A stretch of DNA of 64,000 nt, taken from the IMG/VR virus record IMGVR_UViG_3300028025_000090. One strand, 5' to 3'. The notes beneath the pieces were generated by a model. That model was not told where the DNA came from, did not search any database, and saw nothing but the letters and a program-made list of their open reading frames with translations. Shown piece by piece: positions 2,964 to 28,872 of this stretch (within the stretch, counting starts at the first letter, position 1; each line of letters opens with the position of its first letter). Made by a program: the position numbers and the translations under genes. Origin of the DNA: a virus.

Positions 2964-3242
2964 TCAACTATCTAGGTATTTGTCAATCACCATGGTGAAA
3001 TAATCCGCAAACCAACAAATAGATGATGCGTAAAATCCCCAAAGAGGGATTAGGAAAGGTGTGCCTGACCAGAACATCCCGAAGAAACATCCTACCCAAA
3101 AACCGAGACACATGCAACACTTAAATAATTTTTCAAAGAAATCATTTTTAGATAAATGCTCACGAATAGGATTTAGAATTGATCCGTATTTCAGGATCAG
3201 ACAAGCACCAATTAATACAAAAGATTGAAACCAAAGACTCAT
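2964..3242 (-). CDS. Small membrane protein, DUF1360-like
   Basis: Hydrophobic helices around CCMCLGFWVG (C..C.G.W). Confidence 0.55.
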   Translation of the reverse strand: MSLWFQSFVLIGACLILKYGSILNPIREHLSKNDFFEKLFKCCMCLGFWVGCFFGMFWSGTPFLIPLWGFYASSICWFADYFTMVIDKYLDS

Positions 3243-4201: not shown

Positions 4202-4579
4202 TTATTTTTTCTCAACAATAACTTTCATAAACATTGGATAATTCTTGATCCGTTGTTGTGCGATTTTGAAATTAGCACAAAAAACATCGATTACAATATT
4301 ATTTTTACCTAATTTTTTAGAAGCAGATCTAGCTTTCACTGAACTACCAGTATCAATAGCAGTTGTAGTTAGACCCATTTGTGGTATTTTTACTTTACTA
4401 CCATATGAAATAATTCTAGGATCAACTGCCACTGTTTTACCACAGATCGGTTTTTTTCCAGTAGCGGTTTGATAACCAACTTGACCACCATTGTTTGGCC
4501 AATAGTATGTAATTCTCGCCATATATTCTTCTGAATAGCAGAATGTGGTTAATAATGATGCGATAATTATTTTCAACAT
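4202..4579 (-). CDS. 3D-domain protein with N-terminal signal peptide
   Basis: AVDPRII.YGS, AIDTG and VIDVF supply the three Asp. Hydrophobic leader MLKIIIASLLTTFCYS. Confidence 0.8.
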   Translation of the reverse strand: MLKIIIASLLTTFCYSEEYMARITYYWPNNGGQVGYQTATGKKPICGKTVAVDPRIISYGSKVKIPQMGLTTTAIDTGSSVKARSASKKLGKNNIVIDVFCANFKIAQQRIKNYPMFMKVIVEKK

Positions 4580-4628: not shown

Positions 4629-5036
4629 ATGGGTGAATTAAATAAAAATGTTTTTCCAGATACCATTAAATTAGAAGATTTGGGCATCATTAAAGGAACG
4701 AGAAAATTTCGTCTTTTGGCAGATTTTCGTTGTTATTTTAAAGGTAAATTACTTACTATCCCTAAAGGATTTATCACAGATGGAATTTCCGCTCCTAAAT
4801 TTGCATGGCCTATTATCGGACCTTACGGACCTGCTTTCCCCGCTGCTTTGATTCACGATTGGTGTTTCTCTCCATTTAATAAAGAATATAATTGGAAAGA
4901 ATCGAATTGGCTCTTTTTAGAATTGATGAAGGAAGCTGGTGTCGGTTTTACTATGAGATGGACTATCTATTCTGCTGTTGTGGCAGGATCATATCCCATA
5001 TGGTTAAAACGGATTGAAAGTTACGGTGATAAGTAA
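4629..5036 (+). CDS. DUF1353 family protein
   Basis: IPKGFITDGISAP...AALIHDW; TAAATA box 5 nt upstream. Confidence 0.85.
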   Translation: MGELNKNVFPDTIKLEDLGIIKGTRKFRLLADFRCYFKGKLLTIPKGFITDGISAPKFAWPIIGPYGPAFPAALIHDWCFSPFNKEYNWKESNWLFLELMKEAGVGFTMRWTIYSAVVAGSYPIWLKRIESYGDK

Positions 5037-5040
5037 TAAT

Positions 5041-5616
5041 ATGAATAGCGAAGAAATTAAAAAAATGCAGAAAAAAATCGGTGTTGTTGCTGATGGATTC
5101 TGGGGTCCGAAATCGCAAGATGCTTGTAAAAAATATTTGCGTTCATTGATGCCTAAAAACAATCCATGGCCAAAAAGCGATCAAGCATCTCTAAGAAAAT
5201 TTTACGGAAATCCAGGAGATGAATCAAATCTTGTAACGGTCACTTTACCATATCCTATGTATTACGATGGCAAATTAGTCACCAAAACTCGCGTCAATAA
5301 AAAATGTGCTGATTCTTTATTGAGAATACTCACTAATATTAAAAATATAATCCCAAAATATCCTGATATTAAAAATGAAGCTGAAGATTATGGTGGCATT
5401 TACAATTTTCGTTTGAAGCGTGGTGGTTCTTCTTATTCCCTACATGCTTACGGTGCTGCCATCGATTTAGATGCTGATGAAAATACTTTCCGCGATAGTT
5501 GGCCGATGAAAGCGGATATGCCGCTGGAAATCATGGAAGAATTTGCAAAAGAAGGTTGGATATCTGCTGGTGCGTTTTGGGGATATGATGCTATGCATTT
5601 CCAGGGGACTCAATGA
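5041..5616 (+). CDS. M15-family Zn peptidase, probable endolysin
   Basis: SLHAYGAAID and DAMHFQ motifs. Start moved to ATG 5041, just after the DUF1353 stop. Confidence 0.85.
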   Translation: MNSEEIKKMQKKIGVVADGFWGPKSQDACKKYLRSLMPKNNPWPKSDQASLRKFYGNPGDESNLVTVTLPYPMYYDGKLVTKTRVNKKCADSLLRILTNIKNIIPKYPDIKNEAEDYGGIYNFRLKRGGSSYSLHAYGAAIDLDADENTFRDSWPMKADMPLEIMEEFAKEGWISAGAFWGYDAMHFQGTQ

Positions 5617-24901: not shown

Positions 24902-26044
24902 TTAAAAAACTGAAAAACCAACAGGATCGAAATCTCCGTAACCACCTTCGATTAAGAACTGTTCCAATTCTTTCTTTTCTGCGACACCTTCTGACAAAAT
25001 GGAATCACCATTGATAGAACCACCACCAGGTAAATTCACACCATTAATTTTAGTGAGAATCCTTCCCCACATGACTTTACACAAAGCAGTGGAGTATTCC
25101 AATACCCATTTTTCTTTTACCAAATCTCGAAGCGGTTTTTCCACATAACATTCCAATAAACCATAGAATGTGGTGTTTTTCGGCTGTGGTATCAAGCGTA
25201 AATATTGTGTTCTAGGATCGAAATGAATATCTCTTCTTGTGGCAAACATTTTTTCTCTGGTATCGATCCAATCTTTGACAGTATGCCAAGAAAGAATATC
25301 GAAACCATAATTCCCAAGAGAATATGCGTGATATGATTGTTGTGCCATAGTTTGCTCCACGGAGAACAATGTATTCACACCAGTCGTAGAACCTTCTTCA
25401 AACGATACGACATCAACAACTTTTCGATAATCCATGATGTCATAATCGAACATATTGTTGTATGTGCGAACATCTGCTTGTGGTTCACATTGAATAGTGA
25501 AAGGTTTTTGATAAGATTGTTGAAACAAGGAACTTAAAGAAGGATTGAATCCAACGAATAAGTCATAGGTAGCTTTATCAATAATTTGCATGGATGTAAT
25601 ACCATCGGATGGAACTACAGCACTCAAAGACGATGAAGAAGCAAAATAAGAATTTGGTATGGTAGACAAGGAAACATACAACACATCAGGAATTTTCACT
25701 TCATAATCAGGATTAGGTCCGAGTTTCTTATCATTTAATTTTTCCGATGGTGTGTATCCAGAATTTGCCACGGTGAAGAGAGTGTCCAATCTGATTCCTT
25801 TACCACTTTCATACAAGTTACTATCAAAAATTATATATTCTTTTGAATATCCAGCGTATTTCGTATAAAAATCTGTTGCCATTGAAATCGCTTCATGAAG
25901 TTGGTCATAATGCAATTCAACATTGATCATCGGATGTCCTAATAATCTCAAGATTCTTTCTCCCAAACGTTGATAACACTCGATCTTTGAATTAAGATTA
26001 GTGGACATGAAAGCTGAAATCGGTTCTATTTGACAGAGACTCAT
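24902..26044 (-). CDS. gp13: Neck protein (gp13-like)
   Basis: LGHPMINVELHYDQL; LPGGGSING...EKKELE. TAAATA 5 nt before ATG 26044. Confidence 0.85.
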   Translation of the reverse strand: MSLCQIEPISAFMSTNLNSKIECYQRLGERILRLLGHPMINVELHYDQLHEAISMATDFYTKYAGYSKEYIIFDSNLYESGKGIRLDTLFTVANSGYTPSEKLNDKKLGPNPDYEVKIPDVLYVSLSTIPNSYFASSSSLSAVVPSDGITSMQIIDKATYDLFVGFNPSLSSLFQQSYQKPFTIQCEPQADVRTYNNMFDYDIMDYRKVVDVVSFEEGSTTGVNTLFSVEQTMAQQSYHAYSLGNYGFDILSWHTVKDWIDTREKMFATRRDIHFDPRTQYLRLIPQPKNTTFYGLLECYVEKPLRDLVKEKWVLEYSTALCKVMWGRILTKINGVNLPGGGSINGDSILSEGVAEKKELEQFLIEGGYGDFDPVGFSVF

Positions 26045-26072: not shown

Positions 26073-26369
26073 ATGTCATTTGAATCCAATAATGGTTCTA
26101 TTTATTATCAACTTTCTTGCGGTGTCCCCACTGTTTCAGGGTGGAACGCTAATACTAATGATGGTTCCAAATATTATTACCTATCTTCCAACGATTTCAT
26201 ACTTTGGGGTCAAAGCACTGTTTTCACTCATCCATCAGCTAATAATGGTAGTCAATATTATTTTTATGTGTGTAATAAATCGACTGATACTGGTTGGTCT
26301 GCATTGTCTAACAATGGGACTAAATTTTATTATAATTCAGCATTTAATTGTGTCAGCTTTTGCGAATAA
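26073..26369 (+). CDS. Small NNGS-YY repeat protein
   Basis: Four N(N/D)G(S/T).(Y/F)Y motifs; has its own late box. Confidence 0.7.
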   Translation: MSFESNNGSIYYQLSCGVPTVSGWNANTNDGSKYYYLSSNDFILWGQSTVFTHPSANNGSQYYFYVCNKSTDTGWSALSNNGTKFYYNSAFNCVSFCE

Positions 26370-26377
26370 ATAATATC

Positions 26378-27052
26378 ATGGATTTATGGATTTTCCTAAT
26401 GCAGAACGCGCAAACTATTTCAATTGTTATTGGATTGGTAAGCACCTTTTTGGTTTTTTTCAAAAAAATTAAAAAATTTATTATTAAAAAATATGAACAA
26501 CATAAAATTTATAGTAAATCTAAACATGAAATACCAGAAATTTTACAAGAAATTAAATTAGGAATCGGTAATTTAGATACTCGAATGAAGAATGTTGAAT
26601 ATGAAATCTCCCCTAATGGTGGTGGTTCCATGAAAGATTCTCTGAAAATTATCAAAGCAGAAATAGAAGCAATGTTTTGGTTGAACCCAAAACCATCTTT
26701 CCGAACTACTTCCAAAGCAATGAATATTCAAGTTAATGAAGCATATTGTCATTTGTGTGCGACATCATCGGAAGAATTACTTCGTTTGAATTGGAAAAAT
26801 TTCATAGAAGATGAAAGTCAATTGGACGATTACATGCGTAGATGGGAAGAATCTACCGATGCCTTTTCACAATTTGCTGGTAAATTAAAATTTAAAAATT
26901 CTCGTGGAGAATCTATGGGGGAATGGCTAGTAAAAGTTCGCCCTCTCGGATCAATAGAAGAAGGACGGGATTATTTGTGGAACGGTTCAATTTATCCGTT
27001 TGATCAGAAATCAAAAGAATGTGCTAGGAATTTTAATATTCCTCTGAATTAA
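26378..27052 (+). CDS. Membrane-anchored PAS-domain protein
   Basis: One TM helix, basic flank, coiled coil, PNGGGSMKD, then VNEAYCHLCATSSEELLRLNWKNFI (PAS core). Start moved to 26378. Confidence 0.7.
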   Translation: MDLWIFLMQNAQTISIVIGLVSTFLVFFKKIKKFIIKKYEQHKIYSKSKHEIPEILQEIKLGIGNLDTRMKNVEYEISPNGGGSMKDSLKIIKAEIEAMFWLNPKPSFRTTSKAMNIQVNEAYCHLCATSSEELLRLNWKNFIEDESQLDDYMRRWEESTDAFSQFAGKLKFKNSRGESMGEWLVKVRPLGSIEEGRDYLWNGSIYPFDQKSKECARNFNIPLN

Positions 27053-28872
27053 ACTGGTGGTGCTTCTTCTGCTGGAGGTGCTTCTTCTGCTGGAGGTGCT
27101 TCTCCACCGCCCAAATCAGCTTCTTCGCCACCTCCTATAGCGGCTCCACCACCTCCGAAGTCTGGAGGCATACCGCCTCCACCGCCTCCACCGCCACCTA
27201 AGTCGCCGCCTTCTCCTCCCGCAGCACCTTCAGCTTGTTGCGCTGCAAGTTCTTTCCAGTTAGGCCCGTTAGCTTTAATTTGTTCAATTTCGTATAGGAA
27301 CTCTGCTTCGTTTCTCAAGAAGTGACGATTAGCAAGAATATCTGAATCTTTCCAATCCAAATATTTTTTCATGGCAAAGGTTTTGGAAACGAATTCACTG
27401 TTTGTAATACTGGTAAAGGTGTTAATTTTTAGTTCAAGCTTTTGACTTTCTCTCATGTCATAGAAATTCGTCGGAACATTAAATTCCACTTGAATATTAT
27501 CTTCGAAAAGATCGTATTCTTCGAACATTTCTTTAAATTTGAGATGAGTGACAAATGCTCTTTTGATACCTTGAGCAAATCTTTGTTGTTGACGAATGAT
27601 CATCTTCGCAAATTTGAGTTCTTCACGAAGCATTTCTGTTCCATCATTATATCCTGTTTCACTATTCAAACGAGAAGTAGGAGTCTTCAGAGAACGATAA
27701 AGTTTCTTGATGAACCAATCTAGAGGCTCCATATTACCATCTGATTGTTGACCACCAAATGTTTCAACAGTTGTTGCTTCTTGTCCTTGTCTTTTAGCAA
27801 ACCAGAAAGAATCCAAAGTAGATTGTGGTGCATATTTTTTAACGACATCACTTTGATCCAAATCGAAAGTCTTAGTAGACCAATATTGAGATTGTAATTT
27901 TCTCAGATATGCTTCAGCTTGAGGAACTGGCAATCTACCAACATCAACATTGAAAAGGAAACGAAGAGGGGCATGAACCATTCTATGGATAACCACAGAA
28001 TCTTCGATCATCGAAAGCTGTCTGTAAGCTCTACGGCAATTCTCAATGAAAGGAATAATAAAATCTTTTGTTTCATTATATTGTCCACTATTCACATAAA
28101 GAACTTGGTTCTGTTCAAATGGAATATATTCATACCGTTCAACTTTTTTATTATCGATGCTAGAAAAAATAGGCTTCTTGTAAATAAATGCTTTGACTAA
28201 CATCGTCTGGATGTTGTCATAAACAGGATCGAATTGATCAGCAGGAAGATTTTTAATGGCAACGACACCTTGTTTGATGTAATCATCTTTTAGAATAAGT
28301 TCAAAAAAGAGTTCACCTTCAACGAGAAATTGTCGGAAATAATGCCATCCATTATCATCCAAATCCAACATGGAACAGAATTTAGAAAATTCTTTTTGTA
28401 ATTCTTCTTTTTTCTCTGATTCCAAATCAGCATTACGGAAATTAAGAGTTACGATCTCTCCATCTTCATCGACGTTAATAGTTTCGTCACAAATTTCATC
28501 CAAAGCATCTGCCACTTCGGAGTAAGCAGCAATCATACGGTAGTCTCTAAGACGACCTGGTTTTTCCTCTGATGCTTGGGAATACATCAAATCCGTAAAG
28601 GATTTGTCTTGGTAAATAGCAGAAAACGCTGTGTTATTCCAGTCGTTATTAAGAGCTACAGAGTTCTTAGCAATCGCTTCAGGTCTGCGTAACCCGATTT
28701 TTTGGAAATATTTATATTTTGTATTCTTTGCTTCATCAGGAGTTTGCTGAAGAAAATTCCCACGATTCTTCAAATAGGATTGCATATTCCTATCGAAAGT
28801 GGAACCCTTGCCGTCACTTCCTTGGTATTGATTATTTGATGATGGGGTTGTTGAACTTCCGACTCCTGCCAT
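27049..28872 (-). CDS. gp20: Portal protein (gp20-like)
   Basis: QLSMIEDSVVIHRMVHAP..F.VDVG.LP...AE.YL; REELKF; Gly/Pro/Glu-rich tail. Confidence 0.95.
   Translation of the reverse strand: MAGVGSSTTPSSNNQYQGSDGKGSTFDRNMQSYLKNRGNFLQQTPDEAKNTKYKYFQKIGLRRPEAIAKNSVALNNDWNNTAFSAIYQDKSFTDLMYSQASEEKPGRLRDYRMIAAYSEVADALDEICDETINVDEDGEIVTLNFRNADLESEKKEELQKEFSKFCSMLDLDDNGWHYFRQFLVEGELFFELILKDDYIKQGVVAIKNLPADQFDPVYDNIQTMLVKAFIYKKPIFSSIDNKKVERYEYIPFEQNQVLYVNSGQYNETKDFIIPFIENCRRAYRQLSMIEDSVVIHRMVHAPLRFLFNVDVGRLPVPQAEAYLRKLQSQYWSTKTFDLDQSDVVKKYAPQSTLDSFWFAKRQGQEATTVETFGGQQSDGNMEPLDWFIKKLYRSLKTPTSRLNSETGYNDGTEMLREELKFAKMIIRQQQRFAQGIKRAFVTHLKFKEMFEEYDLFEDNIQVEFNVPTNFYDMRESQKLELKINTFTSITNSEFVSKTFAMKKYLDWKDSDILANRHFLRNEAEFLYEIEQIKANGPNWKELAAQQAEGAAGGEGGDLGGGGGGGGGMPPDFGGGGAAIGGGEEADLGGGEAPPAEEAPPAEEAPPV
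27059..27103. repeat. 18-bp coding tandem repeat (2.5 copies) in the portal tail
   Basis: GGTGCTTCTTCTGCTGGA repeats encode EAPPAE. Confidence 0.8.

Follow-up and report, generated by a model that had tools for sequence, protein, structure and literature searches.

How the moment of lysis is decided has been worked out in a few model holin/antiholin pairs, whose timing comes mainly from holin concentration and membrane energisation. The described proteins closest in architecture to the one considered here are lysis proteins with a single transmembrane domain (TMD). LysF1b of the mycobacteriophages Girr and NormanBulbieJr (Waterfoul gp32) is a protein of 124 residues with one N-terminal TMD, an N-out/C-in topology and a charged helical cytoplasmic tail; deletion of lysF1b leads to a severe lysis defect, and phages keeping only lysF1b can be triggered by an energy poison, LysF1b being holin-like in this respect (Pollenz et al., PMC13056207). 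LysA2b of mycobacteriophage D29 (gp30, 88 residues), whose gene lies amid tail genes at a great distance from the lysins, works together with the two-TMD protein LysA2a (10.64898/2026.08.27.747656). Two further one-TMD proteins are the T4 holin T, which is N-in/C-out with a periplasmic domain, and the phage Mu releasin gp25 (DUF2730), which has a helical cytoplasmic part and acts in lysis (PMC13056207). The initial annotation of the present locus knew of no described system of its kind. One-TMD N-out/C-in lysis regulators have nevertheless been in the literature since 2026, when LysF1b and LysA2b were described (PMC13056207; 10.64898/2026.08.27.747656), and the statement has to be amended accordingly; no PAS-fused form was found in the literature searched, and it is this form that appears to be new.

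The protein is encoded by an ORF of 224 residues that starts with the ATG at 26378 and ends with the TAA at 27050–27052 of the window, the whole 64-kb stretch of viral DNA that was analysed (Table 1). An in-frame TTG at 26348, 5′ of this ATG, is unused in relatives, all of which begin at the same Met. One transmembrane (TM) helix, KKIKK, PNGGGSMKD and a PAS fold reaching to the C-terminus, the layout given in the initial annotation, were all seen in the ORF; for the stretch that it called a short coiled coil, the prediction shows helices only. A 12-residue tail precedes the hydrophobic helix, and across 138 family members the hydrophobic segment begins at about residue 11. In these 138 relatives the mean number of Lys and Arg residues is 0.8 on the N-terminal flank of the TM segment versus 3.5 on the C-terminal flank, a charge bias from which the positive-inside rule predicts an N-out/C-in topology with the PAS domain in the cytoplasm, in agreement with the inside-facing C-terminus suggested earlier from KKIKK. 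Among the tiled ORFs of the 64-kb window, it and one other are the only products that could plausibly be small membrane proteins, a scarcity that speaks for the lysis reading given below.

Table 1. Positions of the features discussed (window coordinates unless another locus is given)
Feature	Position	Strand	Remarks
M15/VanY-type endolysin, only recognisable lysis gene in the window	5014..5616	+	H..G.A.D motif; phrog_17001, E = 3e-24
gp13-type neck/adaptor gene, divergent from the cassette	24902..26044	-	phrog_211; PF26809 in relatives
98-residue protein gene, rich in Cys and aromatic repeats, upstream partner in the two-gene cassette	26073..26369	+	Adjoins the PAS gene on its 5′ side in about 30 of 39 related loci
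CDS of the 224-residue TM-linker-NGGGS-PAS protein (P0001)	26378..27052	+	Conserved ORF; relatives share the start
Single N-terminal TM helix, residues 13-29	26414..26464	+	Kyte-Doolittle 19-residue mean 1.86
KKIKK after the TM helix, residues 29-33	26462-26476	+	
Charged helical linker, residues 30-76	26465..26605	+	AF2 helices 3-50 and 54-76; pLDDT 59-85
PNGGGSMKD motif, residues 79-87	26612..26638	+	Hallmark of the PHROG 9869-type module; N80 and D87 nearly invariant family-wide
PAS domain, residues 88-218	26639..27031	+	AF2, Foldseek, VIA-align and family profile; relatives match Pfam PAS_3 and allied families
T4-type portal gene (gp20), convergent with the PAS gene	27049..28872	-	Stops overlap
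81-residue two-TMD protein with acidic/charged tail, 1 nt after a 194-residue PAS member	L189:7454-7699	+	

Relatives that carry the PAS domain are numerous. Those at 44–93% identity make up 44 clusters, and those at E < 1e-3 number 163, each representing a cluster at 50% identity; almost all of the latter have 200–250 residues and the same layout. In an alignment of 25 close sequences, 43 columns are invariant; conservation of this extent, far beyond chance, marks the ORF on comparative grounds as a real gene. In uncultured phages the family is widespread, forming about 160 clusters at 50% identity. It is missing from 50,697 deposited phage records, among which tblastn with the target and two distant members gave no match. 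A search of the ESM Atlas with the N-terminal part of the protein returned no usable match. Shorter homologues sought with the family profile amounted to one contig-end fragment, and a search for longer fused forms gave none, only generic multi-PAS kinases at weak E-values.

Conservation is distributed unevenly along the chain. Within the close clade, mean pairwise identity is lowest in the TM helix (0.30), followed by the linker (0.36), the PAS core (0.64) and the motif with the N-cap helix (residues 67–101; 0.77), the most conserved segment. N80 and D87 of the motif and W139 in the PAS domain are among the invariant or nearly invariant residues. Judged by this pattern, the TM helix behaves as an interchangeable tether and the motif is the most constrained part of the protein; the low identity of the helix suits a tether better than the pore-lining helix of a holin.

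Sequence searches of Pfam, PHROG and the PDB with the 224-residue target alone gave nothing significant. A search of the PDB with the family profile reaches PAS domains at E = 1e-4, and Pfam PAS_3 is matched by 23 of 60 relatives (best E-value 6e-17). An AF2 model with a mean pLDDT of 82, rising above 90 in the PAS core, in which PNGGGS is carried on a low-confidence loop (residues 77–82), displays an N-cap helix (83–101), a five-stranded sheet and a C-terminal helix (210–218). The top matches in a Foldseek search with this model were all PAS/LOV structures (3olo, TM-score 0.81), and VIA-align superposed the domain onto the PAS domain of NifL (Z of 14.3, r.m.s.d. of 2.6 over 119/119 residues) and onto 3olo (Z of 14.3, r.m.s.d. 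of 1.8 over 111/111). The full PAS fold that the initial annotation had proposed for structural verification is therefore confirmed at the level of the predicted model, and its statement that no kinase or cyclase is attached also holds: there is no further domain, and the protein ends six residues past the PAS fold. The stretch aligned by eye to the LOV motif GxNCRFLQ reads LNWKNFIED, so that the LOV motif is absent, and no cofactor or ligand signature was recognised in the domain on this reading by eye, a point against the lysis-timing reading favoured below. Many PAS_3 domains are without a cofactor.

On the evidence of profile comparisons, the TM helix and motif together form a module that is homologous to a much larger family of phage proteins of 64–130 residues (PHROG 9869). 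Members of the PAS family match phrog_9869, a profile of 98 positions, at E-values of 1e-6 to 1e-8, and the target itself matches it at E = 0.005 over residues 71–99. Comparison by hhalign of the close PAS clade (A1) with a family of short proteins bearing NGGSS (A7, L053–L132) gave 98.1% and E = 9.5e-14 over target residues 63–99, the short set having been chosen by the motif and the PAS clade not. An HMM of the short proteins finds only the PAS-protein ORF in the 64-kb window (E = 1.5e-7). As read from its residues, the target possesses each element of the module, namely the N-terminal TMD, the basic flank and the E..PNGG(G/S)S.(K/R)D helix-turn-helix. The module lies outside every Pfam family listed, both for the 60 PAS-fused members (all eight families) and for the short proteins (first 25 of 55 families).

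A degenerate DNA pattern for PNGG(G/S)S.(K/R)DA..R.E occurs in at least 120 IMG/VR stretches. Among the 80 loci listed of these at least 120, nearly all encode proteins of 64–130 residues composed of a TM segment, a linker, the motif and a short coil, and only two encode proteins of about 213 residues. Many of the short NGGSS proteins have a second conserved motif at the C-terminus, H-(L/I/V)-x-x-H (H-x3-H), which the PAS domain replaces in the fused family.

The genomic setting of these short proteins connects the module with lysis. Deposited examples were reached by tblastn with the short motif. Streptomyces phage mu1/6 gp52, which matches the whole phrog_9869 profile at E = 2e-32, is placed after the endolysin gp50 and the holin gp51; Arthrobacter phage Sonali gp22 overlaps the start of lysin A; and Thermobifida phage P1312_040 overlaps the start of an amidase/endolysin. 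These three proteins bear out the earlier statement that PNGGSS motifs occur in small phage membrane proteins near lysis genes. All three also match phrog_15431, in which `holin' is an annotation label only. Among 96 same-strand neighbours of the short-module IMG/VR loci were five holins, five endolysins and several tail proteins.

A remote kinship between the short NGGSS family and LysF1b/LysA2b is plausible from profile comparison. Against an alignment of nine LysA2b/F1b homologues (A8), the short family (A7) scored 83% in hhalign with E = 8.5e-6 over 61 columns, a kind of score that TM-containing segments can inflate; the TM helix and the motif are in register (Q..PNGGSS-RD versus QV.NTHDTN-RD). 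The PAS family compared with A8 by profile gave nothing, and D29 gp30 as a single sequence reached 6.7% in hhalign. In the LysA2b homologues (D29 gp30 corresponds to L176:22296-22562) the block E-Q-V-x-N-(T/S)-H-(D/E)-x-N-(L/M)-R-D is conserved, and it mirrors E-x-x-P-N-G-G-S-S-(L/M)-(R/K)-D of the NGGSS family while being one residue longer.

These results lead us to favour, at a confidence somewhat short of even, a reading in which the PAS protein is a membrane-tethered component of lysis timing that acts with or on the holin/endolysin system of the phage, the PAS domain replacing the charged C-terminal helix and conferring dependence on a signal. It is supported by the homology of the module and by the context of the relatives, not by the local context. 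The sensor-gated holin or antiholin inferred in the initial annotation is thereby supported in part. In this phage the gene is remote from lysis genes: the gp13-type neck gene and the portal gene are its neighbours, and the M15-type endolysin is 21 kb away. The endolysin is flanked by a gene resembling tail-assembly chaperones, and on the strand opposite to it lies an ORF (4202–4579, −) with weak likeness to L-Ala-D-Glu peptidases. An ORF of 92 residues (2964–3242, −), about 1.8 kb from the endolysin, has at least two hydrophobic segments, contains a CC.C cluster and matches no PHROG; its sequence makes it a holin candidate.

No holin is found beside the endolysin among the window ORFs, and this bears on the idea that the PAS protein forms the pore, as a one-TMD holin in which the PAS domain is a built-in gate. 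The short relatives are holin-like in size and charge, and LysF1b acts as a holin open to triggering by energy poisons (PMC13056207), both of which speak for such a role. We nonetheless judge it decidedly improbable, as the TM helix is the segment least conserved, unlike a pore-lining helix and in contrast to the motif, a separate canonical holin is often next door in relatives, the 92-residue ORF offers a multi-TM candidate in this phage, and the window covers 64 kb of a genome of probably 150–200 kb (contigs of relatives are up to 208 kb long). The variable TM helix and the frequent separate holin in relatives instead suggest a regulator or partner of the pore.

The PAS gene and the gene directly upstream form a two-gene cassette. 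The upstream product, of 98 residues, has repeated NNG(S/T)xYY motifs and four invariant Cys residues, with no TM helix and no PHROG match, and AF2 predicts no fold for it (pLDDT 36). The T4 late-promoter motif TATAAATA, which would have backed the label `late' of the initial annotation, is missing from the surroundings of the cassette, and the window as a whole shows no enrichment in it. The stops of the PAS gene (+) and the portal gene (−) share the palindrome TTAA at 27049–27052, leaving zero intergenic space and no predicted terminator, so that read-through would yield RNA antisense to the portal gene. In some relatives about 1.7 kb is inserted at this junction. The C-terminus of the portal protein (27049–27220, −) is a low-complexity tail of about 55 residues, with Gly runs followed by repeated EEAPPA units. 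The portal is only about 30% identical to the portals of cultured phages and, going by this comparison, the phage is a deep-branching uncultured T4-like phage.

The arrangement of gp13 (−), the 98-residue and PAS genes (+) and the portal gene (−) is kept in about 30 of 39 loci of the T4-like clade, down to 50% identity of the PAS protein. Outside this clade, a PAS member follows the endolysin with a 4-nt overlap in L043, and in L173 a tail-fibre gene, a 117-residue protein with a weak holin match (E = 7e-4) and an Amidase_2 endolysin are followed by an overlapping PAS member at the end of the late operon. In L174/L175 a Phage_holin_10 gene and an endolysin of phrog_17001, the same PHROG as that of the endolysin in the window, lie 3 kb upstream on the same strand and in the same operon. 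The gene order of L189 (Table 1) recalls the pairs formed by two-TMD LysF1a and one-TMD LysF1b. A PAS member is located between a portal gene (PF04860) and a head-morphogenesis gene resembling SPP1 gp7/Mu F in L044–L047, between an HNH gene and a head-closure Hc3 gene in L094, among tail or tail-fibre genes in L123 and L048 and among small genes in L004. Every position that allows interpretation falls within a late region of structural or lysis genes; about a third are linked to lysis and about a third to portal or connector genes, which the PAS-fused gene adjoins in three to four lineages. Several distant members are on contigs too short to show context, and a further locus search with alignment A10 returned mostly the same T4-like loci. 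For the link with lysis genes, this survey of neighbourhoods cuts both ways: members overlap endolysin genes in two lineages (L043 and L173), and portal, connector or tail genes adjoin them in others.

Because adjacency to the portal is repeated, the main rival reading is that of a head/portal assembly factor, in which a membrane tether starts or organises the prohead at the inner membrane and the PAS domain serves as a module for protein–protein interaction or dimerisation. T4 gp40 is said to help start prohead assembly at the inner membrane for the gp20 portal. In the T4-like clade the PAS gene borders directly on the portal gene (about 30 of 39 loci), the member in L044–L047 is directly 3′ of a portal gene of an unrelated type and 5′ of the gp7/MuF-like gene, and that in L094 is upstream of the head-closure gene and overlaps it. 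L044–L047 are one subfamily, however, and the portal adjacencies therefore amount to only two to three independent events; the homologous short module is found in lysis cassettes and not in head modules, and there are PAS-fused members whose genes overlap that of an endolysin. The protein showed homology to no assembly factor, and membrane-bound head initiation is to our knowledge confined to T4, so that we regard such a role as unlikely. If it were true, the protein would be a new membrane-linked factor of head assembly.

The PAS protein diverges faster than its structural neighbours, with identities of 52–67% where those of the portal are 75–92%; among L001–L041, for example, an identity of 66% to the PAS protein of the window goes with 92% for the portal and 81% for gp13. 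Such rapid evolution, a two-gene cassette inserted into the structural module on the opposite strand and a position that varies between lineages would also fit a host-directed accessory (`moron') protein outside lysis, active in superinfection exclusion or immunity, or as a PAS decoy that pairs with membrane sensor kinases of the host. PAS domains commonly heterodimerise, as a decoy would require. We consider this distinctly unlikely, given that no similarity to known exclusion proteins is present and that proteins of this kind would not be expected to overlap endolysin genes repeatedly, as members do in other lineages.

Under the favoured reading as a lysis-timing component, the protein would be a bitopic inner-membrane protein with a short N-terminus outside and one poorly conserved anchoring helix, and its cytoplasmic part would run from a charged helix through the conserved E-x-x-PNGG(G/S)S-x-(K/R)-D turn-helix to the PAS domain. 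The anchor and motif would make up the same module as in the stand-alone phage proteins in or beside lysis cassettes, which resemble LysF1b/LysA2b, with the PAS domain standing in place of the usual charged C-terminal helix. The domain might then set the activity or oligomeric state of the module according to a cytoplasmic ligand, the redox or energy state, or a partner protein, and in this way the protein may tie lysis time to the state of the cell. A ligand-type sensor in a membrane protein of the lysis cassette would give host physiology a direct route to lysis time, and the PAS-fused family would extend the one-TMD N-out/C-in lysis regulators beyond actinophages, through a kinship that is remote and plausible. 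A bolder version, which we hold to be doubtful, is that the protein represents the missing lysis clock of a large clade of uncultured T4-like aquatic phages: a one-TMD effector of holin type gated by its own PAS domain in response to a host metabolite, redox or energy state, for which the co-transcribed Cys-rich protein of 98 residues may be a partner or antagonist.

Comparison with known systems places the protein between several groups. The Mu releasin gp25 is likewise a one-TMD protein with a helical cytoplasmic part; it pairs with a SAR endolysin, whereas the endolysin ORF of the window is without a hydrophobic N-terminal segment, and identity with releasin is rejected because DUF2730 is listed neither among the Pfam matches of the PAS family (all eight) nor in the short-family list (first 25 of 55). 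The T4 holin T, a class III holin, shares a TMD near the N-terminus, a globular soluble domain, a length of about 220 residues and an origin in a T4-like phage. Its domain is periplasmic, whereas the PAS domain is predicted to be cytoplasmic; this reading is rejected because the predicted topology is opposite, and Phage_holin_T is absent from the eight Pfam families of the 60 members.

Stand-alone PAS proteins (the `short LOV' protein PpSB1-LOV and PYP) and the PAS modules of NifL, FixL and histidine kinases have the same fold, including the N-cap helix (Z of 13–14), and the short LOV proteins, like the phage protein, have no enzymatic output domain. Identity to these PAS domains is only 12–16%, and the phage protein differs from them in being membrane-tethered and phage-encoded. 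The short proteins of PHROG 9869/15431 share with it the N-terminal TM helix, the linker and E..PNGG(G/S)S.(K/R)D..R.E, but are 64–150 residues long, carry no PAS domain and are encoded in lysis cassettes, outside of which the PAS gene lies here.

LysF1b and LysA2b, which come from actinobacterial siphophages and are 88–124 residues long, terminate in a helix in which more than 50% of the residues are charged, whereas the PAS protein, of a T4-like myophage known from sequence alone, has 224 residues and ends in a globular PAS domain. Common to all three are a single N-terminal TMD, basic residues immediately after it, a predicted N-out/C-in topology and a charged helical cytoplasmic part. LysA2b is, moreover, encoded amid structural genes away from the lysins, as is the PAS gene here, and so provides a precedent for the position of a gene of this type far from the lysins.
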